Assembly: GCA_947425005.1 (NCBI GenBank)
Contig: CANDYP010000002.1
Coordinates: 1-45,861 of the forward strand
Reading direction: 5' to 3'
DNA from: Rickettsiales bacterium
GTDB lineage: Bacteria; Pseudomonadota; Alphaproteobacteria; Rickettsiales; UBA1997
DNA length: 45,861 bases
The notes beneath the pieces are model-generated. The model ran no database searches. It had not been told where the DNA came from and worked only from the letters and a program-made list of their open reading frames with translations. The position numbers were made by a program, and so were the translations under genes. Positions 1,521-35,693 of the stretch are shown piece after piece (the stretch's first letter is position 1; the number at the start of each line of letters is the position of its first letter).

Positions 1521-3818
1521 TTATTCGTTACTAGTCGCAGCAAGTGCTGCCATATTGATGATCTCATTGATTGAGGAGCGCATCGTGACAATTTGTACAG
1601 GCTTTTCCAAGCCGTGGAGGATTGGGCCAACGACTGTGCAATTTCCAAGCTCTTCCAAAAGCTTGGTAGCAATTGAAGCTGAATGCAGGCCGGGGCAAAT
1701 CAAAATATTTGCTGGCGCAGTTAAGCGACAGAAAGGATATCTCGACATTTTATCGGCATTCAAAGCCACGTCAGCAGTCATTTCGCCGTCATATTCGAAA
1801 TTAACTTTTATGCCGTCAAGCAAGGCTACGGCGTGTTTGATTCGGCTGGATTCTGTTTTTAAAGCAGAGCCAAAATTTGAGAATGACAAGAAAGCGACGC
1901 GAGGTTGGTAGCCCAATTGACGCACTTTGTCAGCGGTTTGAATGGCAATGCTGACTAGATGTTCAGGAGAAGAAAGTTCGGAACAAGCGGTGTCGGAAAT
2001 GAAAATGGTGCGACCTTTAGAGATCACCATTGAAATGCCCAAAACGATTTTGTCTTTTTTGTTTTTGATTACTTTCCAAACATCGGTGAGGGATTGGCGG
2101 TAACCGCGAGTAAGGCCGGTAACCAGCGCATCGCCGTGTCCGCAGGCCAGCATTGAGGCGGCAAAAATGTTGCGGTCATTTTTTACCATGCGGGAGCAGT
2201 CAGAGCGTAACACGCCTTCGCGTTGCAATTTTTTGTAAAGGTAATCAGTGAATTTGTTGTTATCAGAGGACATTGAGGCGTTGTAGATCTCGATGCCTTT
2301 TGGATCGACATTGGCTTCAGCCATATTTTCCAAAATGCGCTTTTCTTTGCCGATTAGGATTGGCTTGCCGTAGCCGGAATCACGCCACATTGCAGCAGCG
2401 CGGATGATTTCCGGTTGTTCACCTTCAGCGAAAATTACTTTTTTTGGATTACGTTCGAGCTTGTCGAAAATCATGCTCATGGAGTTGACTGTAGGGTCAC
2501 GGCGAGCCTGCAATTGGCGGGTGTAAGCGTCCCAATCTGTAATTGGCTTGCGGGCGACACCGGTTGCAACCGCGGCTTTAGCGACGGCAACTGGTACGAC
2601 ATGAATCAAACGTGAATCAAAAGGAGTTGGAATAATGTATTGTGGGCCGAATTTCATGTCGCGATTGCCGTAAGCTTTCATTACTTCTTCAGGCACATGT
2701 TCGCGGGCTAAGTCAGCAAGAGCTTTGGCGGCGGCGATTTTCATTTCTTCGTTAATCGTTGAGGCGCGTACATCAAGAGCGCCGCGGAAAATGTAAGGGA
2801 AGCCCATTACGTTGTTCACTTGGTTTGGATAGTCAGAGCGGCCCGTTGCAACAATGGCATCGGAGCGGGTGGCGTGAACTTCTTCTGGCGTGATTTCCGG
2901 ATCCGGGTTGGCCATTGCGAAAATCACCGGATTTTTCGCCATTGATTTAACCATTTCTTTGGTCACTGCACCTTTGACCGACAATCCTAAAAATACGTCA
3001 GCGCCTTTCATAGCTTCGGCCAAAGTGCGGGCTTTGGTATTGGCGGCGTGGGCGGATTTCCACTGATTCATTCCTTCGGTACGGCCTTTGTAAATTGTGC
3101 CTTTAGTGTCACACAAAATGGCGTTGTCGTGCGGCAATCCCATTGCTTTCAAAAGTTCAAGGCAAGCGATGCCCGCAGCGCCGGCGCCGTTCACGATCAC
3201 TTTAAGATCTTTAAATTTTTTGCCGGAAATGTGTAAAGCGTTCAAAATACCGGCGGCAGACACGATTGCCGTGCCGTGTTGGTCGTCGTGGAAAACTGGG
3301 ATGTCCATTAATTCACGTAACTTGCTTTCAATGATGAAGCATTCTGGAGCTTTGATGTCTTCAAGGTTGATGCCGCCCCAGGTTGGCCCTAAATATTTTA
3401 CGGCGTTGATGAATTCGTCAGCGTTTTCGGTGGCGACTTCAATGTCGACCGAATCAATATCGGCGAAGCGTTTGAACAAAACTGATTTGCCTTCCATTAC
3501 TGGCTTGCCGGCTAGAGCGCCGAGATTTCCAAGGCCAAGTACAGCAGTGCCGTTTGAAATGACGGCGACGTAATTTCCTTTAGCGGTGTAGTCGTAAGCG
3601 AGGTCAGGATTTTTTTGAATTTCTAAACAAGGAACGGCAACTCCCGGAGAGTAGGCCAGAGCAAGGTCGCGCTGAGTATTAAGTGGTTTGGTTGGTTGCA
3701 TTGAAACTTTGCCGGGCTGACCCTGCATGTGAAATTGTAGCGCTTCGAGATCTTTGGAATTTTGTGTTGTGGATTTGGTTGACGAATTGTTTTTTACCGC
3801 GTCTTTTTTGCTAGCCAT
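1521..3818 (-). CDS. maeB: NADP-dependent malic enzyme (malic enzyme fused to a PTA-like domain)
   Basis: About 765 aa from MASKKD (the ORF-track start at 3860 is probably too far upstream). Conserved blocks: LALAYSPGVA, FHDDQHGTAIV, VNGAGAAG. The C-terminal phosphate-acetyltransferase-like half is typical of MaeB. Confidence 0.93.
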   Translation of the reverse strand: MASKKDAVKNNSSTKSTTQNSKDLEALQFHMQGQPGKVSMQPTKPLNTQRDLALAYSPGVAVPCLEIQKNPDLAYDYTAKGNYVAVISNGTAVLGLGNLGALAGKPVMEGKSVLFKRFADIDSVDIEVATENADEFINAVKYLGPTWGGINLEDIKAPECFIIESKLRELMDIPVFHDDQHGTAIVSAAGILNALHISGKKFKDLKVIVNGAGAAGIACLELLKAMGLPHDNAILCDTKGTIYKGRTEGMNQWKSAHAANTKARTLAEAMKGADVFLGLSVKGAVTKEMVKSMAKNPVIFAMANPDPEITPEEVHATRSDAIVATGRSDYPNQVNNVMGFPYIFRGALDVRASTINEEMKIAAAKALADLAREHVPEEVMKAYGNRDMKFGPQYIIPTPFDSRLIHVVPVAVAKAAVATGVARKPITDWDAYTRQLQARRDPTVNSMSMIFDKLERNPKKVIFAEGEQPEIIRAAAMWRDSGYGKPILIGKEKRILENMAEANVDPKGIEIYNASMSSDNNKFTDYLYKKLQREGVLRSDCSRMVKNDRNIFAASMLACGHGDALVTGLTRGYRQSLTDVWKVIKNKKDKIVLGISMVISKGRTIFISDTACSELSSPEHLVSIAIQTADKVRQLGYQPRVAFLSFSNFGSALKTESSRIKHAVALLDGIKVNFEYDGEMTADVALNADKMSRYPFCRLTAPANILICPGLHSASIATKLLEELGNCTVVGPILHGLEKPVQIVTMRSSINEIINMAALAATSNE

Positions 3819-3902
3819 GTTGGGGGGATAAAAAGAGTTGAGAGTTCGAGGGATGAACAAGGGGAGTGACAGGGCGGCGAAAGTTAGTTTTCAGAAATCT
3901 TA

Positions 3903-4655
3903 ATGTCAAAAAATATGCAGATCGACAAAAGCAAAAAATTTTCACAATTTTTTGACGCCAAAAAAGAGCCAAGAAAAATTGATTTTTTGGTGTTGCATCA
4001 CGTGGAGGCAAATTCTGCGGAACACGCAATTGAACAATTTTTTGAGCATCAAGTGAGCTCACATTTTCTGATTGATGAGCAGGGAAATATTTTTGAATTG
4101 GTGGATGAGAATAACGTGGCGTACCACGCGGGAGTCAGCTTCTGGCGTGGCTTTGAGGCTCTTAATCAAAATTCAATTGGCGTCGAATTTATTAACGCAG
4201 CGCCTTTTTCTAAAAAATTCGAAGCAGCGCAAATGCTTGCGGGAGTTCAACTTTGCAAATATTTGGTCGCGAAATATCAAATTGCGGCGGGAAATATTGT
4301 AGGGCATTCCGACATTGGTTACGTGAAAGAAACTGGAATTTTGGATCGTAAACAAGATCCGTCACATCTTTTTGATTGGAAGTTTTTGGCGGAGAATGGC
4401 GTCGGAATTTTTGTTCCAGCTGCACTGAGCAAGCAGAAAATATTTGAGCTTGGAAATAAAGATGCGGGCATTCTTTTGATCAAAGAAAATCTAAAAAAAT
4501 TTGGCTACCGCGTGACGAATTTAAGCAATGAATTTGATGCTGAAATGCAAGCTTTGGTGCGGGTTTTTAACCGTCGGTTTATCGGGAAGGATTTGGATGT
4601 GTGGTGTGAGGGATCGCAACAAGCCTTAACAAAGGTGATTTTGACTGAGATGTAA
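3903..4655 (+). CDS. N-acetylmuramoyl-L-alanine amidase (AmpD/PGRP amidase_2 fold) with C-terminal peptidoglycan-binding repeat
   Basis: FLVLHH...SSHFLIDEQGNIFELV...AYHAGVSFWRG...SIGVEF...GHSDI is the amidase_2 pattern. The C-terminus LIKENLKKFGY...FDAEMQALVRVFNRRF looks like a PG_binding_1 domain. Confidence 0.85.
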   Translation: MSKNMQIDKSKKFSQFFDAKKEPRKIDFLVLHHVEANSAEHAIEQFFEHQVSSHFLIDEQGNIFELVDENNVAYHAGVSFWRGFEALNQNSIGVEFINAAPFSKKFEAAQMLAGVQLCKYLVAKYQIAAGNIVGHSDIGYVKETGILDRKQDPSHLFDWKFLAENGVGIFVPAALSKQKIFELGNKDAGILLIKENLKKFGYRVTNLSNEFDAEMQALVRVFNRRFIGKDLDVWCEGSQQALTKVILTEM

Positions 4656-4700
4656 TGCTTTCACGCCTTGCTTGGACAAAAATACTTGCGACGAGATGGG

Positions 4701-4718
4701 CCCCGTCATTCGACGGGG
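4701..4718. terminator. Hairpin between convergent genes (possible bidirectional terminator)
   Basis: ccccgtc-attc-gacgggg lies between the amidase stop (4655) and the pilin-like gene stop (4740). There is no clear U-tract. The adjoining ggggtgacgga also occurs inside family E (832-842). Confidence 0.3.
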
Positions 4719-4739
4719 TGACGGATGAGAGTAGGGTGG

Positions 4740-7313
4740 TTAATAAGGATTAAGAATTGAGCCGAAATTCTGTTGATTATTTGAGCATGAGGCGCCCCAA
4801 GAGCCATTGTAACCATTGCCAGCATTAACATCATCTCTGCAATAAAGCTTTGCGTAATAACGACCGTCCACACATTTGAAGGTAAAGTTCGCGCTAGAGT
4901 CATCGTGGTGAGCTTGATACTGACAACGTCTTTCTTCTATAAGATGTTGCGATCCAGCTGGAGTGAGAAGATGTTGAGCTGTTGGAGCGCTACCGCCAGA
5001 ATTCTGGCAGTTAGAGCCCGTTAAACCATAGCAGTCAAAATCATTTATTCCTGCACTAGTCCTATATTTGCCAAAACAATAATTTGCTCCGCTTGGCGTC
5101 GAAGTGGATGTTGCGACAATGGTACTTTTTGCGCCGGTAAGGCTAGTACAACCTTTGCAAGAGGTGCAGGCATTTGAAATTACCCACGTACCATTAGAGC
5201 AAGTGACATATGGGGCGGCGGATATTCTGTCGGTAGTTGTAAATTTATTTGTGCCGTCAATTTCAACGTTACAGATGTCGACTTCGCCAGAGGTGTAGGT
5301 TCTACTAAAATCACTTGCAGCGCCTATGTAAGAGTGTCCAAAGCCAGAGTTACATCTTAAGTTGATGGTGGCTCCGTCGACAGAAGCCCCTGCAGAGTAG
5401 CTTGGATCGTAGGCATTCGCGGTGGTGTAGTATTGGCTTTTGGTGCAAGAGAGTGCAGCGCAGGTTGATGCATCATCAGTGTCAAGATCGGTAAGAAAGC
5501 TTAGTTGATAAGCTGGAGAGACGGACGTTTGGTGAGCGTTAACACTGGAAGTTGCATCACAAGCACTACCCCAAGAGTTATCGTGTCCATTGCCTAGATC
5601 TGCTTCATCGCTACAAGCCATTTTTATATTAAAACGACCATCAACACATTTAGACCAAATTACAGAGCTAGAATTGTCGTTATGACCTTGATACTGACAG
5701 TTATCAAGTGCACTTCCATGCGATAATGATGTCATTGAAAGGGCATGTTCTGAGAAGCTGTAGCTGGTACAGTCACTGGCTATGCCATTAATGTAGTAAC
5801 AGTCGTAATTTCCTGACCAGCCACTGGAGTTTTCATTTCGGAATTTACCCTTGCAGATGTTGGTAGATGAACCGTTGTTATCGTCACTATAATCGTAGAC
5901 TACATATGTTTCTGCGCCACTTACCGAAGAAGAGCAATCCCGGCAAGGGCTGCATGGATTATCTATTAAACCAGCAGTGCCACTTACATGGTTTTTCCAA
6001 GTTCCGTTGTCGCAATATACTGATGGGGCGGTGGCGATTCTATCGGTTGTGTTAAAGGGTTGAACTCCATCTACTCGAGGGTGACATAAGTCCACTTGGC
6101 CATCAGCTGTGGAAGGGTTGGTAAAGCTTCTTGAACTTCCGATCGCATGCCCAGATCCGGGATTGCATCTTAAGTTCGAAATAGTGGTGCCGCTGGCTAA
6201 ATATTCGCTGCGAGCAGCGTAACCGGAATCATGGGCATGTCCATCAGATCCACCATAAGAACAACTTTTTTGACAATAGCCGACGAAGCAAGTGGATGAT
6301 CCAGGAGTGTTGTCATAAGTACATTCAGTAGGGGTTTCCCAGATGCCTTTCAAACTACATTTTCTGGTGGGGTGACTTACAGAATCTCTCCAATATAAAG
6401 GGCAGGCTGTGGGGGAGATTACTGTTTGATCGTGATATGATTTTGGCCAAACTACTTCCGTGCCATCAGTCGTGTGACCAAGTTCGCCACAATATTTATT
6501 CTGAGTTTGTGCAGCACAAGGAACCAAGGTCCAAGCTCCAAAATCATCAAACATTTGGTTTCTGGTTTTGTAAAAAACTACGTCATCAAAATCAGAAGCG
6601 GCAGCAGAGCCAAGGAAGGTGCTGTCAAATGTAGAAGTTGCCGGCGAGACACCATCATTCACTGAAGATAAATCGTTACTCGATTCGTTGCTAACTGAAG
6701 TTGAAGGGCTTGCAGAGTTGGCGGAGTAAGCTCCAGACTGATTAGCTCCACGACTCATCAAAACAAACATCGCGTTAGTTTCAGATGTGCCGCTAATCGT
6801 GATATGTTGGTAAGTAACAGTTCCTCCATCGGCAGCTTCAATGATGCTATTTTCAAAACTATCTGAAGAGGTTGTGGCCAGTCTTCTGTCGACGACGTAA
6901 ACAATTTTATTGCCGTAAGCATCTTCAGCAACGCTACTACTTAACCCCAAAGCCTGAATTGGCACCATTCCGTAGATCAAGTTAGAAGTGGTTGATTTGT
7001 AAATACCAGCATCGCTGCAATCAGTAGCATTGGACGGTGATCCGTAGGCTGTTGAGGTGTTTTTAATATCCGTGATTGGAGCTGGACAAGGAAGGCTGCC
7101 AGTATTCTGCAAATATCTTCCCAAGGCCTGGTAAATTATGGCAATATTGTCGCTGCTGCTTTTAGATTTAGAGTTGATGGTCTTACTAGTTGTTACCGAC
7201 AGAACCCCTACAATGACAACCGACAGTACGGCAATGATGATGGAAAGCTCAATCAAGCTGAAAGCTTTGCTGAATTTTTTACGATTAAATTTTTTTGTAA
7301 AAAGCTGTCTCAT
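4740..7313 (-). CDS. Giant prepilin-leader (type IV pilin/pseudopilin-like) protein with duplicated Cys-rich ectodomain
   Basis: 857 aa. The N-terminus is a basic leader, then KA|FSLIE with Glu at +5, then a ~20-residue hydrophobic helix, which is the class-III (prepilin) signal. The pilin-like head includes EDAYGNKIVYVVD. A Ser/Thr-rich linker follows, then ~600 aa with 38 Cys, including two homologous 14-Cys modules. Confidence 0.8.
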   Translation of the reverse strand: MRQLFTKKFNRKKFSKAFSLIELSIIIAVLSVVIVGVLSVTTSKTINSKSKSSSDNIAIIYQALGRYLQNTGSLPCPAPITDIKNTSTAYGSPSNATDCSDAGIYKSTTSNLIYGMVPIQALGLSSSVAEDAYGNKIVYVVDRRLATTSSDSFENSIIEAADGGTVTYQHITISGTSETNAMFVLMSRGANQSGAYSANSASPSTSVSNESSNDLSSVNDGVSPATSTFDSTFLGSAAASDFDDVVFYKTRNQMFDDFGAWTLVPCAAQTQNKYCGELGHTTDGTEVVWPKSYHDQTVISPTACPLYWRDSVSHPTRKCSLKGIWETPTECTYDNTPGSSTCFVGYCQKSCSYGGSDGHAHDSGYAARSEYLASGTTISNLRCNPGSGHAIGSSRSFTNPSTADGQVDLCHPRVDGVQPFNTTDRIATAPSVYCDNGTWKNHVSGTAGLIDNPCSPCRDCSSSVSGAETYVVYDYSDDNNGSSTNICKGKFRNENSSGWSGNYDCYYINGIASDCTSYSFSEHALSMTSLSHGSALDNCQYQGHNDNSSSVIWSKCVDGRFNIKMACSDEADLGNGHDNSWGSACDATSSVNAHQTSVSPAYQLSFLTDLDTDDASTCAALSCTKSQYYTTANAYDPSYSAGASVDGATINLRCNSGFGHSYIGAASDFSRTYTSGEVDICNVEIDGTNKFTTTDRISAAPYVTCSNGTWVISNACTSCKGCTSLTGAKSTIVATSTSTPSGANYCFGKYRTSAGINDFDCYGLTGSNCQNSGGSAPTAQHLLTPAGSQHLIEERRCQYQAHHDDSSANFTFKCVDGRYYAKLYCRDDVNAGNGYNGSWGASCSNNQQNFGSILNPY

Positions 7314-7346
7314 GATTTTTTCTGTATTGACTAATTTTAGAAACTT

Positions 7347-8069
7347 TCAGCGAAAAACTGTCTTAGCGATTGTCAGTGCCGTCACTTTTTTCGCCCCAGC
7401 TTTTTTCAAAACTTTGGCGCAATTTTCTAAAGTGGCTCCGGTTGTGATTACGTCGTCGATTAGGAGAATTCTTTTATTTTTTACGGTTTGAAAATATTTC
7501 GGATTTAAAGCGAATGCGCTCTTCAGATTTTTTTTGCGCTGCTTTTTTCGGAGCGTAACTTGAGCTGCGGTATTTTTGATACGCAACAAAAAATCAGGAT
7601 AAAACTTTGTTGTGGGTGTGTGTTGTAGCATTGCGCGGCACAAGAGCGAAGCTTGGTTAAATTTTCTCTGACGCAATCTTTTTTTATGAAGTGGTACTGC
7701 TACGATAAGATCAATATTTGTTAGTTCGGCACGACTTCTGTGAAATAAAAATTTTGCTAATTTTTTGGCGATGTAAGTGGTGTCGCGATATTTAAATTGG
7801 CTGATTATTTTTTTAATAATTTCGTTGTAGCGAAAGACCGTGATCGTTTTGTCGTAAGCTGGCGGGTCGCTTAAACAAGAGGCGCAGGTCAAATCATCGC
7901 TCACCTTAAAATCAAAAGGATGCGCGCAAATTTTGCATTTCGGCTCAGTAATGAATTGCAATTTTTGCCAGCAATCACTACAAAATAGACCTTCCGCACT
8001 AATTATTTTTTCGCAGTACAAGCAGTGACTTGGAAAAATAATTTCCAAGATTTTCTTAAAAAATTTCAT
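7347..8069 (-). CDS. comF: ComF-family protein (ComFC-like; zinc-ribbon plus phosphoribosyltransferase fold)
   Basis: 240 aa. The N-terminus has CxxC...CxxC...CxxC...CxxC, and the C-terminus has the PRTase motif ILLIDDVITTGATL. Confidence 0.82.
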   Translation of the reverse strand: MKFFKKILEIIFPSHCLYCEKIISAEGLFCSDCWQKLQFITEPKCKICAHPFDFKVSDDLTCASCLSDPPAYDKTITVFRYNEIIKKIISQFKYRDTTYIAKKLAKFLFHRSRAELTNIDLIVAVPLHKKRLRQRKFNQASLLCRAMLQHTPTTKFYPDFLLRIKNTAAQVTLRKKQRKKNLKSAFALNPKYFQTVKNKRILLIDDVITTGATLENCAKVLKKAGAKKVTALTIAKTVFR

Positions 8070-8073
8070 TTAC

Positions 8074-8880
8074 GTGATGACTCAAGAGGTTTTATTCGAC
8101 CGTGATTTGCTGCGCCAAAACCGAGCGCGCACTGCCCAAAATTTCGCGCAGCATAATTTTCTGCATCACGAGATTGCAAATAGAATCAAAGAGAATGTTG
8201 AGATGCTGAATCGCAAGTTTGAAAGCATTTTAGAAATCGGTGCTCGTGATACTTACTTGTCTGAGCTCTTTCTTGAAGGGCCGGCTGATTCTTCTGAAGC
8301 CGCTGGTTTAGGAGATCTAACGCCACGTTTGCACAAAGGAATTTTTTACGAATTTTTTGATGACGAAGAAATTTTACCGCAAGAGCCAGAGGCGTTTGAT
8401 CTGATTTTGAGCAATCTAAATTTTCACTACATTAACCAAATTCCGCAATTTTTGCTGCAAGTAAAAAACTTGCTAAAGCCAAATGGCATCTTCATTGCCA
8501 GCTTTTTTGGCGAAGAAAATTTAAGTCAGCTAGTGCACGTAATGCATGAAACTGAAACTGAAATTTACGGCGGAATTTCGCCAAGAACTCCGCCGACGAT
8601 TGACGTCAAAACCGCGGCCGCTCTGCTGCAAAAGGCCGGTTTCCAAAATCCGATTTCTGATTTTGAAAAAATCGAAGTAAATTATTCTGATCCTTTGAAT
8701 CTGTTAAAAGATTTGAAAATGATGGGTCAGGGCAATATTTTAACCAAGCGCTCGCGCAAGTTTTTTACCAAAAAATTCCTCGGAAAAGTTTCACAAAATT
8801 ATCGTAAGACCTACGGAAATACCGATGGTGGCGTTACTGCTACTTTTGAAATTGTTACTGTAACTGGGTGGAAAGTTTGA
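8074..8880 (+). CDS. Class I SAM-dependent methyltransferase-like protein (BioC/NDUFAF5-like)
   Basis: 268 aa. LEIGARD (a degenerate motif I), FDLILSNLNFHYIN and LKPNGIFIASFFG fit the methyltransferase_11 pattern. The start could be GTG 8074 or ATG 8077. Confidence 0.6.
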   Translation: MMTQEVLFDRDLLRQNRARTAQNFAQHNFLHHEIANRIKENVEMLNRKFESILEIGARDTYLSELFLEGPADSSEAAGLGDLTPRLHKGIFYEFFDDEEILPQEPEAFDLILSNLNFHYINQIPQFLLQVKNLLKPNGIFIASFFGEENLSQLVHVMHETETEIYGGISPRTPPTIDVKTAAALLQKAGFQNPISDFEKIEVNYSDPLNLLKDLKMMGQGNILTKRSRKFFTKKFLGKVSQNYRKTYGNTDGGVTATFEIVTVTGWKV

Positions 8881-8993
8881 CTGAGTTTGTGACGAGAAAC
8901 CCCCCTACCCCCCTTGTCAGGGGGGCTTTGCACCGAACTCGATAAGCCCCCCCCTGACAAGGGGGGTAGGGGTGTTTCTCGTCACAAACTCAG
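8881..8993. repeat. Family-A GC-rich palindromic element, full copy
   Basis: ctgagtttgtgacgagaaacccccctaccccccttgtcagggggg...cccccctgacaaggggggtaggggtgtttctcgtcacaaactcag is a near-perfect 113-bp palindrome. It starts at the base after the methyltransferase stop and ends 20 nt before the miaB ATG. Confidence 0.92.
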
Positions 8994-9013
8994 TCCAAAA
9001 TTAAAATTAAAAA

Positions 9014-10390
9014 ATGAAAAAATTACACATCAAAACCTACGGCTGCCAAATGAACGTCTACGATTCAGACCGCATGCAAGACCTCATGACCGCTGTCGGA
9101 TACGAAACCTCTGACACTCCCGAAGGAGCAGACATGGTCATCATCAACACCTGTCACATTCGCGAAAAAGCTTCGGAAAAATTATTTTCCGATTTGGGTC
9201 GCATCCGTCCCCACAAAGACAAAATGAAAAATGACGGTAACCAGATGATCGTTGCTGTTGCTGGCTGCGTAGCTCAAGCCGAGGGTGAAGAAATTTTCAA
9301 ACGTTCTAATGTTGTTGATATTATTGTCGGACCAGAAAGTTACCAAACCTTGCCAGACTTGGTTGGGAAGGTGATTCGCGAAAAAAAGAAGCAAATTAAT
9401 TTGGAATTTACGCCGAACGACAAATTCGATGTTTTGCCACAAAGCGCTGCCGGAGTTGGTGCTTCAGCATTTGTAACAGTGCAAGAAGGTTGCGACAAAT
9501 TTTGTACTTTCTGCGTCGTGCCTTACACTCGCGGCGCTGAATATTCCCGCGAAGTTTCCAAAATTGTCGACGACGCCAAAAGACTTGCAGGTCAAGGTGT
9601 TTCTGAAATTTATTTGTTGGGACAAAATGTAAATGCGTACCACGGATTAGATGTGAGCGGCCAGTCCGCCAGCCTCGCCAAGCTAATCGAAGAAATTGCT
9701 AAAATCGAAAATATAAAGCGCATCCGCTACACCACGTCACATCCACGTGACATGTCGGATGATCTGATCGCGGCGCATCGCGATGTTGAAAAGTTAATGC
9801 CATTCTTGCACTTGCCAGTTCAAGCTGGATCAAACTCAGTGCTTAAAGGCATGAACCGTAAACACACTCGCCAAGATTATTTTAAAATTATTGAGAAGAT
9901 CCGCCAAGCCAAGCCAGACATGGGCCTGTCTTCTGATTTCATCGTTGGCTTCCCCGGCGAAACTGACAAAGATTTTGAAGATACTTTGGACTTAATAAAA
10001 CAAATCGGCTTTGCGCAGTGCTATTCTTTTAAATATTCACCGCGTCCGGGAACGCCCGCCAATGATGCTAAAATTCAAGTCGAAGAAAAGGTAAAAGAAG
10101 AGCGTTTAGCGATTTTGCAAAAACTTCTAACTGAGCAGCAAATCGAATTTAATCAGAAATTTGAAAACACCGTAATGCCAGTGCTTTTTGAGAAAGAAGC
10201 TCCGAAGAGTAAAGCCAATAGTCCGAAAACTTCGCGTCCCGGCACGCAACTTTGGGGGAAGTCTCCTTGGCTACAATCCGTGATTGTCGATGTTTCCAGC
10301 GAAGAAGAGGCAAAAAAGTATTTTGGCCAAATTGCTGAAGTAAAAATTTTAAAAAGCCGCCCGAGCAGCTTGGTGGGCGAGTTAAGTTAG
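9014..10390 (+). CDS. miaB: tRNA-2-methylthio-N6-dimethylallyladenosine synthase
   Basis: 458 aa. N-terminal KTYGCQMNVYDS, radical-SAM motif CDKFCTFCVVPYTRG and a C-terminal TRAM region. Confidence 0.93.
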   Translation: MKKLHIKTYGCQMNVYDSDRMQDLMTAVGYETSDTPEGADMVIINTCHIREKASEKLFSDLGRIRPHKDKMKNDGNQMIVAVAGCVAQAEGEEIFKRSNVVDIIVGPESYQTLPDLVGKVIREKKKQINLEFTPNDKFDVLPQSAAGVGASAFVTVQEGCDKFCTFCVVPYTRGAEYSREVSKIVDDAKRLAGQGVSEIYLLGQNVNAYHGLDVSGQSASLAKLIEEIAKIENIKRIRYTTSHPRDMSDDLIAAHRDVEKLMPFLHLPVQAGSNSVLKGMNRKHTRQDYFKIIEKIRQAKPDMGLSSDFIVGFPGETDKDFEDTLDLIKQIGFAQCYSFKYSPRPGTPANDAKIQVEEKVKEERLAILQKLLTEQQIEFNQKFENTVMPVLFEKEAPKSKANSPKTSRPGTQLWGKSPWLQSVIVDVSSEEEAKKYFGQIAEVKILKSRPSSLVGELS

Positions 10391-24407: not shown

Positions 24408-24625
24408 TGTATAACTCAAAAATATGTAAAAAATGAGTTATATACCCAACCTAATCCAAAACACCGAACTTCTGACTTCGCCTTTTTGGTAAAAATTTGC
24501 TCGGAAAACTTGGCTGTAGCACTTGCTACAGCCGGCGTTTTCTGTCGCAATTTTTCCTCAAAAATTCTCGTCATAAGTTCGGTGTTTTGAATCAGGTTGG
24601 GTATAGAAATAACTTTTATAACTCA
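24408..24625. repeat. Family-D large palindrome (~220 bp) abutting the fic start codon
   Basis: The arms tatacccaacctaatccaaaacaccgaactt (24441-24471) and aagttcggtgttttgaatcaggttgggtata (24575-24605) are inverted repeats. Outer tataactca/tgagttata motifs lie at 24410-24442 and 24617-24625. The central hairpin is ggctgtagca/tgctacagcc (24512-24533). Confidence 0.8.
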
Positions 24626-24632
24626 TGAATTT

Positions 24633-25745
24633 ATGAAAACTTGGAGTTGGGAGAAGAAAGGGTGGCCGGGATTTACCTTTGATGAAGGTGTTTTGAAGGG
24701 CGCAGAATCTAGCTTTCTGACTAACGCCGGATTATTTACCGGCGTTTTAAAACATAGTTCTGACGACGACAAAAACTCTCTAAAAATCAGTTTAATCGGA
24801 AGCGAGGCTTACAAGACTTCAGAAATTGAAGGAGAAATTCTTGATCGCGAAAGCTTGCAATCTTCGATCCGCCGTAATTTTGGACTTGCCCCTACAGCAA
24901 AAAAATCCAGCAAAAAAGATGCCAAGCTTGCCGAAGAAGGCGTTGCTGAAATGATGTCGGATCTTTACCGAAATTTTGCCAAGCCACTGACTCACGCCCA
25001 ACTTTTTTCGTGGCATGAAATGCTGATGAAAGGCCGCAAAGACTTGAAAATAGCGGCTTACCGCACTCACTTAGATCCGATGCAAGTTGTCTCAGGGAAA
25101 ATTCACGCTCCCAAAATTCACTTCGAAGCGCCACCGTCGAAACAGATAAAAAGTGAAATGAGTGACTTCATTAAATGGTTTAACGGCAGCAAAAATTTAC
25201 CAATTTTAACTCGCGCTGCCATCGCCCATCTTCATTTTATTTTGATCCATCCTTTTGAAGACGGCAACGGACGTATTGCCCGCGCACTCACGATTAAAGC
25301 GCTTTCGCAAGGTTTGAATCAATCAAGTTTGATTTCGCTTTCTCACGCGATTCAAAGTAAAAAGAAAAAATATTACGACGCGCTTGAGGCCAGCAACAGA
25401 TCGCTCGAAATCAATAATTGGCTTGGCTATTTTTCAAAAACAATTTTGGAAGCGCAGGGCTATTCACAAGCTTTGGTTGAGCTCTCAATCACAAAAAATA
25501 ATTTATTCAAAACTCTGCAAGGCCGCTTAAATGAACGGCAAATCAAGGTTTTGAACCGCATGTTCCAAGAAGGTCCTAAAGGTTTTGACGGCGGATTGAG
25601 TGCAGAAAATTACATTAAAATTACCAAAACTTCACGCGCTACGGCGACTCGTGATTTACAAGATTTACTTGAAATGAAAGCGCTGAAAAAAACCGGCGAA
25701 GGCCGTTGGACGCGCTATTTTCCTAAGACTCAGGACGGGTTCTAA
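24633..25745 (+). CDS. Fic-family protein (DUF4172-type N-terminus, class II intramolecular inhibitory motif, C-terminal wHTH)
   Basis: Fic motif HPFEDGNGRIAR (25248-25283). Inhibitory [ST]xxxE[GN] motif TSEIEG (24816-24833). The N-terminus MKTWSWEKKGWPGF is typical of DUF4172-Fic proteins. The TTG at 24597 in the ORF track would translate the repeat and is less likely. Confidence 0.88.
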   Translation: MKTWSWEKKGWPGFTFDEGVLKGAESSFLTNAGLFTGVLKHSSDDDKNSLKISLIGSEAYKTSEIEGEILDRESLQSSIRRNFGLAPTAKKSSKKDAKLAEEGVAEMMSDLYRNFAKPLTHAQLFSWHEMLMKGRKDLKIAAYRTHLDPMQVVSGKIHAPKIHFEAPPSKQIKSEMSDFIKWFNGSKNLPILTRAAIAHLHFILIHPFEDGNGRIARALTIKALSQGLNQSSLISLSHAIQSKKKKYYDALEASNRSLEINNWLGYFSKTILEAQGYSQALVELSITKNNLFKTLQGRLNERQIKVLNRMFQEGPKGFDGGLSAENYIKITKTSRATATRDLQDLLEMKALKKTGEGRWTRYFPKTQDGF

Positions 25746-28143: not shown

Positions 28144-29673
28144 ATGAAATTATTTTTTTATTTTGCTTTCGCGATTCTGCTGCAAGCCGCACCAGTCTTG
28201 GCTAAAACTTACGACCTCGAAATCAAAAAGCAGAAAGTTTTTGTCACGGGAAAGGCGGTTGAGGCATTTACAATCAACGACACGATTCCTGGTCCAACCT
28301 TGCGCTTCAAGGAGGGAGAGGATGTTGAGATTCGCGTAAAAAATTCTTCCGATGAGACAACTTCGATTCATTGGCACGGAATTTTACTGCCGGGCAAGAT
28401 GGATGGTGTGCCCGGACTCAACGGTTTTGAAGGCATCGCGCCGGGTAAAACTTTTACTTACAAATTCAAAATTCGCCAAAACGGAACTTACTGGTACCAC
28501 TCGCATTCGAACCTGCAGGAGCAGCGTGGAATGTACGGGGCGATTGTGATTGAGCCGCGTAATTCTAAGCCTCAACCCGATCACGTGATTTTACTTTCCG
28601 ACTTTTCCGAAGAAAATCCGCAGCGAATTTTAGACAATCTCAAACTCGATTCCGGCTACTACAATTACAACAAACGTACGATTTTTACTTTCTTCAGCGA
28701 CGTCAAAAAAGACGGATTTTTTGCGACGTTAAAAGATCGAATGTCTTGGGGTCAGATGCGGATGGATCCTACGGATCTCTCGGATGTCAGTCGTTACCAT
28801 TTTTTAATTAACGACAAAACGGCGCAGCAAAATTATTGGATACCGACGACGGAAAAATGGACTCGCCTTCGCTTCATCAACGCCGGCGCAATGACTTTTT
28901 TTGACGTTTCGATTCCTAATTTAAAAATGAAAGTAGCCGCCGCGGATGGTCAAAACATTAAGCCCGTAACGGTTGACGAATTCAGAATTGCCCCGGCAGA
29001 AACTTACGATGTGATCGTTGAACCTAAGAACGACAAGGCTTACACGATTTTCGCCGAGTCGATTGATCGCACCGGATATGCTCGCGCAACGCTTGCACCA
29101 AGGCCAGACATGATCGCAGAAATTCCGGCAATGCGCCCACGAACCTTGTTAACAATGTCTGACATGGCGATGAATTCTAAGATGGGCGAGATGGACATGA
29201 GTGCAAAAAGCGGTTGGGCTAATGCTTCAACTCCCGCGGGACACAAGGCTTTGAGCTATTCCGATTTAATTTCTGCAACGCCGCAAAAAGATTTGCGTGA
29301 GCCGATTCGCGAAATTGAATTTCGTTTTGGTGGCACGATGAATCGCTACATTTGGACGATTAACGGCGAAAAATTTCCCTCACCGATTCACTTAAAATTC
29401 GGCGAGCGCGTGCGTTTGAAATTTATTAACGAGACGATGATGGCCCATCCGGTGCACCTTCACGGCATGTTCGTGCAATTAGAAAATGGCCAGCCAATGA
29501 AGTGGATGCCAAATAAACACACGGTGATCGCACCTCCCGGGCAAACGGTTTCAACGCTTTTGACGGTGGATGAAGAAGGCGAGTGGGCCTTTCATTGCCA
29601 CCTGCTTTACCACATGGCGACGGGGATGATGAGTAGTGTTACGGTTGAGAGGGGCGAAAAAAATGTTGAGTAA
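28144..29673 (+). CDS. copA: Copper-resistance multicopper oxidase
   Basis: 509 aa with a signal peptide. Cu-site motifs HWHG, WYHSH, HPVHLHG and HCHLLYHMATGMM, plus a short Met-rich stretch. Confidence 0.9.
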   Translation: MKLFFYFAFAILLQAAPVLAKTYDLEIKKQKVFVTGKAVEAFTINDTIPGPTLRFKEGEDVEIRVKNSSDETTSIHWHGILLPGKMDGVPGLNGFEGIAPGKTFTYKFKIRQNGTYWYHSHSNLQEQRGMYGAIVIEPRNSKPQPDHVILLSDFSEENPQRILDNLKLDSGYYNYNKRTIFTFFSDVKKDGFFATLKDRMSWGQMRMDPTDLSDVSRYHFLINDKTAQQNYWIPTTEKWTRLRFINAGAMTFFDVSIPNLKMKVAAADGQNIKPVTVDEFRIAPAETYDVIVEPKNDKAYTIFAESIDRTGYARATLAPRPDMIAEIPAMRPRTLLTMSDMAMNSKMGEMDMSAKSGWANASTPAGHKALSYSDLISATPQKDLREPIREIEFRFGGTMNRYIWTINGEKFPSPIHLKFGERVRLKFINETMMAHPVHLHGMFVQLENGQPMKWMPNKHTVIAPPGQTVSTLLTVDEEGEWAFHCHLLYHMATGMMSSVTVERGEKNVE

Positions 29674-30535
29674 AATTCAAAATCACCTCCAGCCGCATTA
29701 CCCCCTGCTGTCAGTTGAGCAACAACCCCTTCCGTCGGTTGAGCGGAGTCGAAACCCCGTGAGTTCGGCTTCATTACCGCAGCCAAACTCACGTAGTTTC
29801 AGCTCCGCTCAACCGACGGCTGGGGTTTTTTTAATTTTATTATTTCTACTCTTCGCCCCACAAAATCTTTTCGCCGCAATGAATCACGGCTCTGATCACC
29901 AGCAAATTTTTCACGCTTTTATTTTGGAGGGCGATGTCGGTCACGATCACGATGGATCAGCCAAGGCATTGAGTTTAAACGGTTGGATAGGCGGTGATCT
30001 AAATCGTCTTTGGATCAAAAACGAAACGAAGTCTTTTGGAAAATACGACACTCAAAATGAAACTCAGCTGCTTTACGGCAGAAATATTTCGCAATTTTGG
30101 GACGCACAAATTGGGGTTCGTCACGACATTAAAACCGACTTTTCTTCTCACAGCGTAGATTACTTAACCCTTGGCCTTGAAGGCTTAGCGCCTTATCTTT
30201 TTGAAACCGAGGCGCAAGTTTTTGTCAGTAATGAAGGAAATTACAGCGCGCATTTAAAGCAAGAATTTGACATTTTTCTGACGCAAAAATTAATCACTCA
30301 ACCTTATTTCGAAGCCGATTTTTTTGCGCAAAATGTACCGAAATTGAAAGTGAGTTCTGGTCTGTCAGAGGTTGAGATTGGCCTGTTGACGCGTTACGAA
30401 ATCACTCGCCGTTTTGCGCCGTATTTCGCCGTGCGCTACAATCGCAAAACTTTCGGCACGGCGGATTTAGCTAAACAATACGGCGATCGAGTTGGCGATT
30501 TTATTGCCGGGGCGGGTTTGCGGTTGAGGTTTTGA
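29663..30535 (+). CDS. copB: Copper-resistance outer-membrane protein CopB, with a repeat-derived N-terminal extension
   Basis: The ATG at 29663 overlaps the copA stop by 11 nt. The CopB core is WIGGDLNRLWIKNE...LLYGRNISQFWDAQIGVRHD...YFAVRY, ending in RF. The hydrophobic signal segment (GVFLILLFLLFAPQNLFA) lies ~55 aa from the ATG. Confidence 0.78.
   Translation: MLSKIQNHLQPHYPLLSVEQQPLPSVERSRNPVSSASLPQPNSRSFSSAQPTAGVFLILLFLLFAPQNLFAAMNHGSDHQQIFHAFILEGDVGHDHDGSAKALSLNGWIGGDLNRLWIKNETKSFGKYDTQNETQLLYGRNISQFWDAQIGVRHDIKTDFSSHSVDYLTLGLEGLAPYLFETEAQVFVSNEGNYSAHLKQEFDIFLTQKLITQPYFEADFFAQNVPKLKVSSGLSEVEIGLLTRYEITRRFAPYFAVRYNRKTFGTADLAKQYGDRVGDFIAGAGLRLRF
29726..29825. repeat. ~100-bp palindromic element inside the copB 5' coding region
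   Basis: ccccttccgtcggttgagcggag (29726-29748) is the reverse complement of ctccgctcaaccgacggctgggg (29803-29825). The inner pair is cgtgagtt/aactcacg. A T7 run follows. There is a partial tandem copy, gtcagttgagcaaca, just upstream. Confidence 0.8.
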
Positions 30536-33069: not shown

Positions 33070-33212
33070 TAATCTTTGGCTTGTTGAATTATGCCGATCA
33101 ATCAGCGGCAGGGGGGTAAATTTCGGGCAGAAACTAATTGCAGCTCACAAAAGTGACAGATATTTTCTTCGCCCCTACAAAAATTGTCCCTCCCAAAATA
33201 AATTTCAAAAAA

Positions 33213-35693
33213 ATGACAGAAGTAGAAAGCCGCAAGGAATTGTTTAACGTGGAAGCAGAGCAGGCAGTGCTCGGCACAATTATTTTAAACAACGAATATT
33301 TAAATCGTGTTTCAGAATTCTTGCGTGAGGAACATTTTTACGAGCCGGCGCATCAGAGAATTTACGCGCAGATTTTGCACAATGTGGAGAAGGTCAACAT
33401 CATTGCCAATCAAGTTACGCTGAAGCAATTTTTTGAATCCGATCCTGCGATTAAAGCAATCGGCGGCGTGATTTATCTTTCGACGCTTTTGGGTTCAGCC
33501 TCGGCAATCATTGATATTGCTGACTACGGACGCTTGATTCACGACTTGGCTTTGAAGCGTTCGCTCTCAATGGTTGGAGAAGAGATCGTCAATCGCGTTT
33601 ACAAAGTGGAAGAAAAAACTTCGGCGACGGAACAGATCGAACTTGCTGAAGCCACGCTGTTCAAGCTTTCAGAGCATGGCAACGGTCGCAGTGATTTTCG
33701 CAGCATTTCCACTTCACTCAAAGAAACTCTCGACAAAACAATCATTGCCAGACAGCGCGACAGCCACATCAGCGGCGTCTCCACGGGGTTGACCGATCTA
33801 GACAAAATCCTCAGCGGCATGCAGCAATCCGACCTAATCATCCTCGCCGGACGTCCGTCAATGGGGAAGGCTCAGCCGCTTAATGCTAAGATTTTAACTA
33901 CTTCGGGCTGGAAAAAAATGGGGGAGTTAAAAATTGGTGACAAGCTAGCATCCACTGATGGCAAGGCTTCAAAGGTAAAGGGTATTTTTCCGCAAGGCAA
34001 AAAACAAATTTATCGCATTACATTTTCTGACGGTCGTTCAGCCGAATGTTGTGCCGAGCATTTGTGGAAAATTCATTGTCGTCATTTTGAAGAGGCGCGA
34101 ATTCTCTCGACGGAAAAGGTTATTTCAATGTTGGAAAAAAAGCGTTACCAGAATCGTCTCTGGATTGATACAGTGTCGGGTGATTTTGGTGACGACAAAA
34201 AATTACCACTAGATCCGTGGCTGCTTGGCGCCTTGATTGGCGACGGTACGTTATCCGGTGGCGCGGTGCGCTTCTCGACTGCCAGTGAGGAAATGTTAAA
34301 AATTCTGGCGAAAAAAATTGGCAAAGATTTCTTGATCCAACATGCCGGAAAATACGACTACCGGATTATTCAAAGTAAAGGCATTCATCACAAAGGTCTT
34401 GAGGGAGTAAGTAAAAACGGGATCAAAGAATCGCTAAAAAAATTAGGATTGTGGGATATTGTAAGTGAGCAAAAATTTATTCCTGAGCAATATTTTCAAG
34501 CTGATCACAAGTCTCGTCTCGAGCTTTTACAAGGTTTGATTGATACTGACGGTTGGGTTGAAAAATTTGGCGCCTTGCGTTTTTGCACCGTTAGCAAAAA
34601 GCTTGCTGATGATGTGGTGATGCTTGTGCGTTCGCTTGGAGCCGTTGCTTCTCTTTCTTCTAAACAAACTTCTTACACTCACAAAGGTGAAAAAAAGTCG
34701 GGTCAAACTGCTTTTGTGATTAACATTTCTCACGTAAATCAAAAAACTTTTGCTTCCCTGTCGGATAAGGTGAAGCGCATGGAGCAAGGGCGCAAGCGTC
34801 AGAATCGCCTCACCATTACCGAGATTGAAATGACTCGCAAAGCTGAAGCGCAATGCATTTCCGTAACTCATCCGGACCATCTTTATATTACTGATGATTA
34901 CGTGGTAACGCACAACACGGCACTCGCAATCAACGTGGCTGTAAATGCCTGCAAGTTTTTGAATCACAGTGGAGTTGAGGCGAAGGACAAAAAGGCGGTG
35001 GGGTTTTTTTCGCTCGAGATGTCGGCGGATCAGCTGTCAGCGCGTATTCTTTCAATGGAGAGCAGCATTAATGCGACGAAATTTCGCACGGGGCAATTGA
35101 GCGACATTGAGTGGGAAGCAATCGCCACGCGCTCTGCCGAGATTTCAAAATTGCCGTTTTTTATTGACGACACGCCGGCGCTTTCGATTGCGGCGCTTCG
35201 TACGCGTACGCGCAGAATGGTGCGTAAACACAACCTGGCGTTTTTGTTGGTGGATTATTTGCAGCTGATTCGCGGCTCTTCGACTCGCTCGAATGACGGT
35301 CGGGTGCAGGAAATTTCTGAGATCACGCAAGGTTTAAAGGCGATCGCGAAAGAGTTTAATATTCCGGTGATTGCGCTGTCGCAATTGTCGCGCGCGGTGG
35401 AGCAGAGGGACGACAAGAGGCCGCAACTTTCAGATCTGCGTGAGTCGGGTTCGATTGAGCAAGACGCCGATGTGGTGGCCTTCATCTACCGCGAGAGTTA
35501 TTATTTTGAACGCAAAAAACCGCCGGAAACTGATCGTGAGCAGTTTGAACAATGGTCGCAAAAAATGAATGAGCTGCGTCACGTTTCGGAGGTAATCATC
35601 GCCAAGCAGCGTAATGGCCCGATCGGTAAAGTTGATCTTTATTTCGATCCAGAATTCACCCGCTTCGGTAATTTGGATGTGCGGCATTATTAA
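33213..35693 (+). CDS. dnaB: Replicative DNA helicase DnaB, interrupted by an intein in the Walker A P-loop
   Basis: Start at MTEVESRKELFNVEAEQAVLG. Exteins: ...LIILAGRPSMGK | TALAINVA..., followed by SLEMS, LLVDYLQL, ALSQLSR and KQRNGP. The two exteins sum to ~477 aa, a normal DnaB size. Confidence 0.93.
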   Translation: MTEVESRKELFNVEAEQAVLGTIILNNEYLNRVSEFLREEHFYEPAHQRIYAQILHNVEKVNIIANQVTLKQFFESDPAIKAIGGVIYLSTLLGSASAIIDIADYGRLIHDLALKRSLSMVGEEIVNRVYKVEEKTSATEQIELAEATLFKLSEHGNGRSDFRSISTSLKETLDKTIIARQRDSHISGVSTGLTDLDKILSGMQQSDLIILAGRPSMGKAQPLNAKILTTSGWKKMGELKIGDKLASTDGKASKVKGIFPQGKKQIYRITFSDGRSAECCAEHLWKIHCRHFEEARILSTEKVISMLEKKRYQNRLWIDTVSGDFGDDKKLPLDPWLLGALIGDGTLSGGAVRFSTASEEMLKILAKKIGKDFLIQHAGKYDYRIIQSKGIHHKGLEGVSKNGIKESLKKLGLWDIVSEQKFIPEQYFQADHKSRLELLQGLIDTDGWVEKFGALRFCTVSKKLADDVVMLVRSLGAVASLSSKQTSYTHKGEKKSGQTAFVINISHVNQKTFASLSDKVKRMEQGRKRQNRLTITEIEMTRKAEAQCISVTHPDHLYITDDYVVTHNTALAINVAVNACKFLNHSGVEAKDKKAVGFFSLEMSADQLSARILSMESSINATKFRTGQLSDIEWEAIATRSAEISKLPFFIDDTPALSIAALRTRTRRMVRKHNLAFLLVDYLQLIRGSSTRSNDGRVQEISEITQGLKAIAKEFNIPVIALSQLSRAVEQRDDKRPQLSDLRESGSIEQDADVVAFIYRESYYFERKKPPETDREQFEQWSQKMNELRHVSEVIIAKQRNGPIGKVDLYFDPEFTRFGNLDVRHY
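33870..34916 (+). mobile_element. DnaB intein (349 aa) with LAGLIDADG homing-endonuclease domain; class-3-like (Ala1, Trp-B12, Cys-F4, Thr-G5)
   Basis: It begins AQPLNAKILT right after GRPSMGK and ends ...DDYVVTHN before Thr+1. Block B is CAEHLW (H308, W310). Block F is AQCISV (C573). Block G is VVTHN. The LAGLIDADG motifs are LLGALIGDG and LLQGLIDTDG. Confidence 0.9.

Follow-up and report, generated by a model that had tools for sequence, protein, structure and literature searches.

A probable modular pilin-like protein with tandem cysteine-rich repeats from an aquatic Rickettsiales bacterium

We analyzed a stretch of 45,861 nt (the window) from contig CANDYP010000002.1 (assembly GCA_947425005.1) of an uncultured aquatic Rickettsiales bacterium. 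On its minus strand, an open reading frame (ORF) at 7313..4740 encodes a protein of 857 amino acids, which is the subject of this work. The identical protein with the same neighbouring genes occurs in a second assembly (GCA_973627075.1). A first-pass annotation of the window had described a prepilin-type signal, a pilin-like head and a large cysteine-rich distal part, and had proposed a giant minor pilin located at the tip of a filament. Its count of 38 cysteines is correct, and 36 of these lie beyond residue 262.

The N-terminus of the protein is formed by a leader peptide (residues 1–17, nt 7263..7313, minus strand) with the sequence MRQLFTKKFNRKKFSKA. It is basic, with seven Lys or Arg residues, and places Ala17 at position -1. 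The hydrophobic α1N segment follows (residues 18–40, nt 7194..7262, minus strand; FSLIELSIIIAVLSVVIVGVLSV) with Phe at position +1 and Glu at position +5. The junction reads A17/F18-S-L-I-E22 and continues with about 23 hydrophobic residues. The prepilin signal as first annotated, i.e. the basic leader, the A/FSLIE junction with Glu+5 and the hydrophobic residues 17–40 (nt 7194–7265), is thereby confirmed. Class III signals are defined by a hydrophilic leader ending with Gly or Ala, followed by 20–25 mainly hydrophobic residues, usually with Glu at +5 (PMC10191384). The window protein has both the Gly/Ala-terminated leader and the hydrophobic stretch with Glu+5. Its residue at position -1 is Ala; in general, Gly is the commoner residue there. 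Among the family members described below, Ala occupies this position in 126 out of 138 proteins and Gly in 11. The 16 homologues compared all share Leu20, Ile21, Glu22, Leu23 and Ser24.

A profile of 120 family members (A2) was compared with all sequences in the PDB, and type IV filament subunits were the only matches. These are PilE1 (8pfb, E = 9.3e-5), PilA (8tj2, E = 2.8e-4), geopilin, MshA and GspG. In this profile the Phe of the family is in register with residue 1 of the mature, structurally solved pilins.

The pilin-like module (residues 20–262, nt 6528..7256, minus strand) is predicted to comprise the α1 helix (residues 20–71) and a family-specific β-sheet head (residues 72–262). An AlphaFold2 model of the head, calculated with a multiple sequence alignment (MSA) of 120 rows, has a mean predicted local distance difference test score (pLDDT) of 86.2 and a predicted template modelling score (pTM) of 0.81. 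It shows a helix of 52 residues (20–71) followed by strands, and only residues 164–175 of the modeled head are uncertain. Thus, a lollipop fold with a long α1, a head of ~190 residues in β-sheet and one conserved pair of cysteines is confidently predicted by this model. The pair consists of Cys76 and Cys99, which had already been singled out and are both invariant across the family. A Ser/Thr-rich linker that had been placed at residues ~195–240 is in fact part of the conserved, confidently modeled head, which runs to residue ~262. What precedes the tail is a family-specific head module of 245 residues rather than a pilin of ordinary size plus a linker.

The best match of the N-terminal model among PDB folds is the type IVb pilin of enterotoxigenic Escherichia coli (ETEC; 9iuf_A, probability 0.99, E = 0.03, TM-scores 0.27/0.42). 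The block EDAYGNKIVYVVD is present at residues 130–142 as first annotated, with Asp131, Gly134, Lys136, Tyr139 and Asp142 invariant, but the proposed likeness to GspG is not detectable beyond α1. The GspG model TIGR01710 gave 12.6 versus 88.85 bits and covered residues 17–75 only, and 5wda_A aligned over α1 only (E = 0.44); a GspG-type head was therefore rejected. The profile comparisons and the predicted structure mark the N-terminal module as pilin-like; its head of ~245 residues is novel and unusually large.

Residues 263–335 (nt 6309..6527, minus strand) form a small Cys unit with the pattern WPKSY..CP..RKC..G.W..C, which is HRM/Sushi-like and is present in most family members. Cys266, Cys304, Cys319, Trp325 and Cys331 are conserved in at least 90% of these units. 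With the Pfam model for HRM (PF02793), 24 out of 50 family units have matches with E-values of 10 or less; none of these reaches the cut-off, and the best E-value is 7e-4. The unit of the window protein reaches 18.1 bits (gathering threshold 26.2 bits; E = 0.0037) and stays below the threshold as well. It has four conserved cysteines compared to six in HRM. An alignment with the ectodomain of CRFR1 (E = 0.45) brings the motifs WP, CP and C..G.W..C into register. In the fold comparison of the N-terminal model, the single pilin match was followed by ectodomains of class-B G-protein-coupled receptors (probability up to 0.93, E of at least 0.05). A Foldseek search of the same model against BFVD returned no significant match; the weak ones were herpesvirus complement-control (Sushi/CCP) proteins.

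The distal ~520 residues consist of two tandem repeats of ~255 residues each, which are 38% identical in a self-alignment (E = 8e-54). This arrangement had not been noticed in the first-pass annotation. Repeat 1 (residues 336–600, nt 5514..6308, minus strand) contains 16 cysteines; its first half is Sushi-like and is followed by a CxxCxxC triplet and a second half with the pattern CQYQxH...KCVDGRF. A hidden Markov model (HMM) of the repeat (A3) covers residues 339–588 of this copy. Repeat 2 (residues 601–857, nt 4743..5513, minus strand) contains 15 cysteines, including a CxxCxxC triplet. The repeats are nearly orphan sequences: a phmmer search with residues 335–857 against 1.84 billion cluster representatives yielded five proteins, i.e. 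the query itself, three proteins with the family head and one fragment. No significant match of the distal modules was found in the Pfam and PDB sequence searches, and no described bacterial adhesin family was matched, in agreement with the earlier statement that the distal domains were not recognized. A match with HoxU (NF005745, E = 0.2) was dismissed as an artefact of the CxxCxxC triplet. AlphaFold2 with an MSA of eight rows gave a pLDDT of 45.5 for repeat 1, and Foldseek searches with this poor model reached probabilities of at most 0.06. Structure prediction, which the first-pass annotation had recommended for residues 260–857, was thus of little use for the repeat.

The Sushi model (PF00084, gathering threshold 20.7 bits) has no match in either repeat copy of the window protein. 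It scores 24.5 bits in homologue P0010, 20.8 bits in a giant protein of locus L023, 19.3 bits in homologue P0002 and 15.7 bits in a giant protein of locus L026. A vaccinia CCP structure (1e5g_A) compared with profile A3 gave an E-value of 0.13. The likeness of the small unit and the repeats to the eukaryotic Sushi/CCP (PF00084) and HRM (PF02793) domains lies in a shared spacing of four cysteines and in the WP, CP and C..G.W..C motifs. In contrast to Sushi/CCP, the Sushi-like half of the window repeat has an insertion of ~45 residues, and the window copies are under every curated cut-off. Judged from these sequence comparisons, common descent with the eukaryotic domains is not established, and the family raises the question whether HRM/Sushi-like folds exist in bacteria.

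The cysteine-rich module of the window protein also forms the C-terminal end of giant proteins of ~2000 residues, which have ~100 cysteines, an ordinary N-terminal hydrophobic segment and no Pfam domain. Their genes are located 1–3 kb from family genes in seven loci (L018, L023, L025, L026, L028, L039 and L062; for example L026:12547-18576, minus strand). Since the module terminates both pilin-like and giant proteins, it appears to be a mobile extracytoplasmic unit with two kinds of carrier.

A search with the full-length protein returned only 16 proteins. They have the N-terminal 260–340 residues in common and differ in their tails, which are Cys-rich in P0002–P0005, P0010 and P0015 and of the Gly_rich_2 type (PF21722) in the rest. 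A profile of the head (A1) retrieved 298 proteins, mostly of 310–360 residues, and several sources label such relatives as 'prepilin-type N-terminal cleavage/methylation domain-containing protein'. A scan with one genome per species resulted in 78 loci, nearly all of them in metagenome-assembled genomes (MAGs) from lakes, aquifers and estuaries that are labelled Rickettsiales, Pelagibacterales or unclassified Alphaproteobacteria. The labels 'Rickettsia typhi' and 'Rhizobium sp.' on some MAGs look like automatic mislabels. The 78 loci contain 168 HMM matches, 149 of them with at least 80 bits, for proteins of ~250–1526 residues, and tandem arrays of two to five genes are frequent. A typical member has ~320 residues and consists of the head and a four-Cys unit of 70 residues: the median tail past the head is 70 residues long, and 70 out of 86 short-tailed members have four cysteines in it. 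About one quarter of the members carry tails of more than 170 residues, which are Cys-rich (up to 57 cysteines), of the Gly_rich_2 type or Peptidase_S74 modules. Phage tail fibres use Peptidase_S74, the 'chaperone of endosialidase', for trimerisation and auto-cleavage. Members bearing it have ~700–760 residues and were observed at L074:9977-16327, L077:4004-10351 and L075:22-2310, with three tandem paralogues in L074 and L077. At L073:3577-5285, two proteins of 280–286 residues with a weak match to the head profile adjoin a family member. The ORF at L073:3577-4419 has a weak, sub-cut-off match to Laminin_G_3 (concanavalin-like lectin), which recalls the lectin-type PilC of Streptococcus sanguinis.

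By these sequence criteria, more than 150 genes in Gamibacteraceae-like Rickettsiales MAGs make up an undescribed family that is defined by the head (residues 18–262). In the literature searched, the family of the head and the way it has expanded in Rickettsiales MAGs, the preference for Ala at position -1 and the HRM/Sushi-like unit appear to be undescribed; the same applies to the cysteine-rich repeat and to its occurrence in giant proteins as well.

Directly upstream of the pilin-like gene lies a comF-family gene (7347..8069, minus strand), which encodes a double zinc ribbon and a phosphoribosyltransferase domain (DZR_2, E = 1e-15; Pribosyltran, E = 2.6e-8). The specific comF model (TIGR00201, E = 4.3e-35) stays under its cut-off, as does the GntX model. 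The gap of 33 nt between the comF stop and the start of the pilin-like gene (7314..7346, minus strand) contains neither a terminator-like hairpin nor a clear Shine-Dalgarno sequence; distance and strand are in line with the first-pass annotation. A terminator-like hairpin is located at 4689..4708 (minus strand), ~30 nt past the stop codon of the pilin-like gene, as judged by a consensus scan whose site count was not above that of shuffled sequence.

The gene order miaB, methyltransferase, comF, family gene, amidase and malic enzyme is kept in the window, in 7 of the 78 genome loci and on the Logan contig of P0003 (L084), all within one clade. In L084 the order is seen downstream of the family gene only, because the upstream gene is cut by the contig end. 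The gap between comF and the family gene amounts to 3–33 nt in these relatives. The occupants of the slot differ in their tails: a protein of 339 residues without an extra module in UBA2645, proteins of 663–686 residues with glycine-rich tails and proteins of 700, 723 and 857 residues with cysteine-rich tails; L007 contains an array of family genes. UBA2645 is a founding member of Candidatus Gamibacteraceae (bioRxiv 10.1101/2021.08.31.458344), and the MaeB protein of the window is 92% identical to that of UBA2645. A comparison of the region 1521–10390 of the window with loci L001, L006, L008, L009 and L011 gave identities of 62–93% for the flanking proteins and their orthologues versus 47–54% for the head. 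Tail swapping at one slot, combined with a head that diverges faster than its neighbours, is the pattern expected of a surface-recognition protein.

The adjacency to comF is absent at ~70 other loci. The gene of P0016 has an aminotransferase gene on one side and an ATP-grasp gene on the other. In a second conserved slot, FabD is followed by one to three family genes, DUF2335, purE, a giant gene, murD and rpe. As the comF slot is restricted to one clade and comF is absent at the P0016 gene and the second slot, we rejected comF as a family-wide functional partner.

For the remainder of the window, a Pfam scan covered 31 ORFs, i.e. all of at least 120 residues except those nested in or overlapping longer ones. 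The products identified are housekeeping proteins: MaeB, an AmpD-like amidase, MiaB, LexA, ValRS-type and GlyS synthetases and PPDK, and further CopA/B, DnaB with an intein, TsaD, IF3 and a large GDH. No second family member and no other protein with a class III signal was found in the window. The DnaB helicase gene (33138-35693, plus strand) has a LAGLIDADG_3 match at residues 461–539, which marks the intein as one with a homing-endonuclease domain. A Fic/DOC protein with an N-terminal DUF4172 (24597-25745, plus strand) is encoded amid the housekeeping genes. At 28144-30535 (plus strand), two overlapping ORFs encode the CopA-like multicopper oxidase and CopB, an outer-membrane protein for copper resistance.

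Beyond the window, 982 ORFs from 82 loci were clustered and the top clusters scanned with Pfam. Any one neighbour recurs in at most 11 of the 78 loci, and the recurrent neighbours have housekeeping functions except for a VirB10-like TrbI (type IV secretion system). Simple motif searches detected ATPases of the GspE/PilB type in loci L078 and L079 only. At L079:7563-13780, a secretin, an N_methyl protein, a distant family member of 308 residues, a T2SSE ATPase with MshEN and a T2SSF protein are encoded in this order in one compact type 4 filament cluster, which continues with two ORFs without a Pfam match. In L078, a T2SSE ATPase gene is located 7 kb from a distant family member. Components of type IV pili have been reported for the DDG clade (PMC10847448); UBA2645, UBA1997, PilD and PilQ were not found in the supplements of that study.

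Based on the signal, the profile matches, the predicted fold, the machinery genes near distant members and in related lineages, the exchangeable tails and the fast divergence, we propose that this aquatic, Gamibacteraceae-like Rickettsiales bacterium uses the window protein as a modular, type IV pilin-like component of a type 4 filament (T4F), and we assign this interpretation a probability of roughly 0.55. Sec would insert the preprotein into the inner membrane and leave its C-terminal part on the periplasmic side, where up to 19 disulfides could form. A prepilin peptidase would cleave after Ala17, and the T4F machinery would then extract the subunit and incorporate it into a pilus or pseudopilus. 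On account of the bulk of the 600-residue tail, it would most probably occur in few copies and sit at the tip or close to it; the designations 'minor' and 'tip-located' are inferred from the bulk of the protein only. The cysteine-rich modules would serve as ligand-binding (adhesion) modules, most plausibly for the cell surface of a eukaryotic host or prey organism.

As a kind of protein the modular pilin is already known, and the window protein is a variant of that design. More than 1,200 modular pilins of up to 860 residues have been surveyed, and an architecture combining IPR012902, the class III signal motif, with peptidase S74 is on record (PMC8179133). Consistent with the modular design, the tail module of the window protein also occurs outside pilus biology, in the giant proteins, and relatives carry Gly_rich_2 or Peptidase_S74 in its place. 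PilB and PilC of S. sanguinis (PMC8179133; PMC9934059) likewise combine a class III signal and a pilin module with a bulky module that is not specific to pili (vWA and lectin, respectively) and that the filament is predicted to present for the binding of ligands. Unlike their small pilin module, the window head comprises 245 residues, is family-specific, lacks a Pfam model and follows an Ala at position -1; its grafts are undescribed Cys-rich units instead of vWA or lectin domains, it belongs to a diderm Rickettsiales bacterium, and it is known from sequence alone. CofB of ETEC and TcpB of Vibrio cholerae are also large, with a pilin domain and extra β-rich domains that were missed by bioinformatic signatures, and CofB has been proposed to form a trimer at the pilus tip (PMC8179133). 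In contrast to the window gene, however, their genes are located inside pilus operons; they show no sequence similarity to the window protein and are unrelated to its Cys-rich repeat architecture.

Several observations weigh against a filament subunit. No pil or gsp gene, comEC, prepilin peptidase, ATPase, platform or secretin gene was found among the 31 scanned ORFs of the window, as the first-pass annotation had already stated for pilB/C/D/Q and comEC, and pilus machinery was not found as a conserved neighbour of the ~150 family genes in the 78 loci either. The Pfam model N_methyl (PF07963), proposed earlier as a check, remains sub-threshold for the window protein (17.3 bits versus a cut-off of 21.2 bits, E = 0.0034), yet many relatives reach the cut-off: 39 out of 120 listed homologues have a precomputed match, and the proteins of L079 and L075 score 22.7 and 21.6 bits. 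The pilin fold matches are weak, with no PDB match at E ≤ 0.001. The tail has no usable predicted structure, so that the term adhesin is based on analogy, the Cys content and the weak Sushi/HRM-like signals. Even the short members of ~320 residues are twice as large as ordinary pilins, which makes their packing in a filament hard to picture. Finally, Glu5 is present in the window protein, whereas many tip complexes are capped by a subunit without this residue (PMC10191384).

Some of these points would also be explained by a pilin-derived signal-anchor that is never polymerised and holds periplasmic Cys-rich domains at the inner membrane, e.g. in a structural or sensory envelope protein. The lack of assembly genes near the window gene and its ~150 relatives and the sub-threshold N_methyl score fit such an anchor, as do the very large head and the high family expansion, both atypical of pilins, and the presence of the same Cys-rich module on giant proteins whose N-terminal hydrophobic segment is of an ordinary kind. 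However, Glu+5, Phe+1 and a small residue at -1 are near-invariant in more than 130 members, a degree of conservation that a mere anchor would hardly require. The profile is in register with pilins, distant members are encoded inside a T4F cluster, and pilin genes of the type IVa pilus kind are often scattered away from their machinery (PMC10191384). We therefore regard the anchor as unlikely.

A component of a type II secretion system (T2SS) pseudopilus, such as a GspK-like tip, or a tail-fibre-like effector that is delivered by the filament and whose modules are secreted or released, seems improbable. A core T2SS with three pseudopilins has been reported for Deianiraea, an ectosymbiont and sister to Gamibacteraceae, and the Peptidase_S74 and Gly_rich_2 modules of other family members are of the phage tail-fibre type. 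The window protein shares with GspG the α1 with Glu5 and a D-x-x-G-N-like block, and with GspK its large size. On the other hand, the GspG and T2SS models match α1 only. GspK-type tip subunits lack Glu5 (PMC10191384), which is invariant in the family, and GspK has an inserted α-domain rather than C-terminal modules. The window protein itself contains neither S74 nor another cleavage module.

Very improbable is a competence pilin that is co-transcribed with comF and captures DNA at the pilus tip, as the first-pass annotation had considered: the two genes are on the same strand, 33 nt apart without a terminator, in an order kept in relatives, but the comF slot is found in one clade only and is missing at ~70 loci including that of P0016, the slot orthologues have no tail or Gly-rich or Cys-rich tails and hence no conserved ligand-binding module next to comF, miaB, methyltransferase and comF form a block that is kept with housekeeping genes in the slot loci, no comEC or comEA was found among the scanned window ORFs, and all four protein regions are net negative (head -10, small unit -2, repeat 1 -12, repeat 2 -6, from composition only). 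The clade-limited slot, the differing tails and the negative charge together make DNA capture unlikely. Neisseria ComP and Thermus ComZ, the latter with a large extra module (PMC8179133), are likewise pilin-like and linked to competence, as the window gene is by its position next to comF; in contrast to them, the window protein is acidic throughout, the module encoded at the comF slot varies, and there is no similarity.

Returning to the modular filament subunit, its possible meaning lies in the host association of these bacteria. Phylogenomic studies have proposed that ancestral and extant extracellular Rickettsiales attached to protists via type IV pili or a T2SS-like apparatus, and the two recent ones name no pilin or adhesin (PMC9352585, PMC10847448, bioRxiv 10.1101/479196). 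The unannotated family could fill this gap, with its more than 150 genes, its occurrence nearly only in MAGs labelled Rickettsiales, Pelagibacterales or unclassified Alphaproteobacteria, its fast evolution relative to the flanking housekeeping genes and its swappable tails. These same properties make its members tangible targets: antibodies could be raised against them, and they could be sought by metaproteomics or tested in heterologous cleavage assays. The concept of the modular pilin would be extended to a new, large head and to Cys-rich modules that are missed by existing domain libraries. Tentatively, and with considerable doubt, one may go further and regard the family as a lineage-specific expansion of large pilins in probably ectosymbiotic aquatic Rickettsiales (Gamibacteraceae and relatives), in which interchangeable, disulfide-rich HRM/Sushi-like and tail-fibre-like modules, also borne by the giant surface proteins of ~2000 residues, act as cassettes for the recognition of protists. 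If this is true, the family would supply what has long been hypothesised, namely a molecular basis for attachment to hosts by pili when the host association of the Rickettsiales arose. The family may be the means by which these bacteria attach to their host cells.

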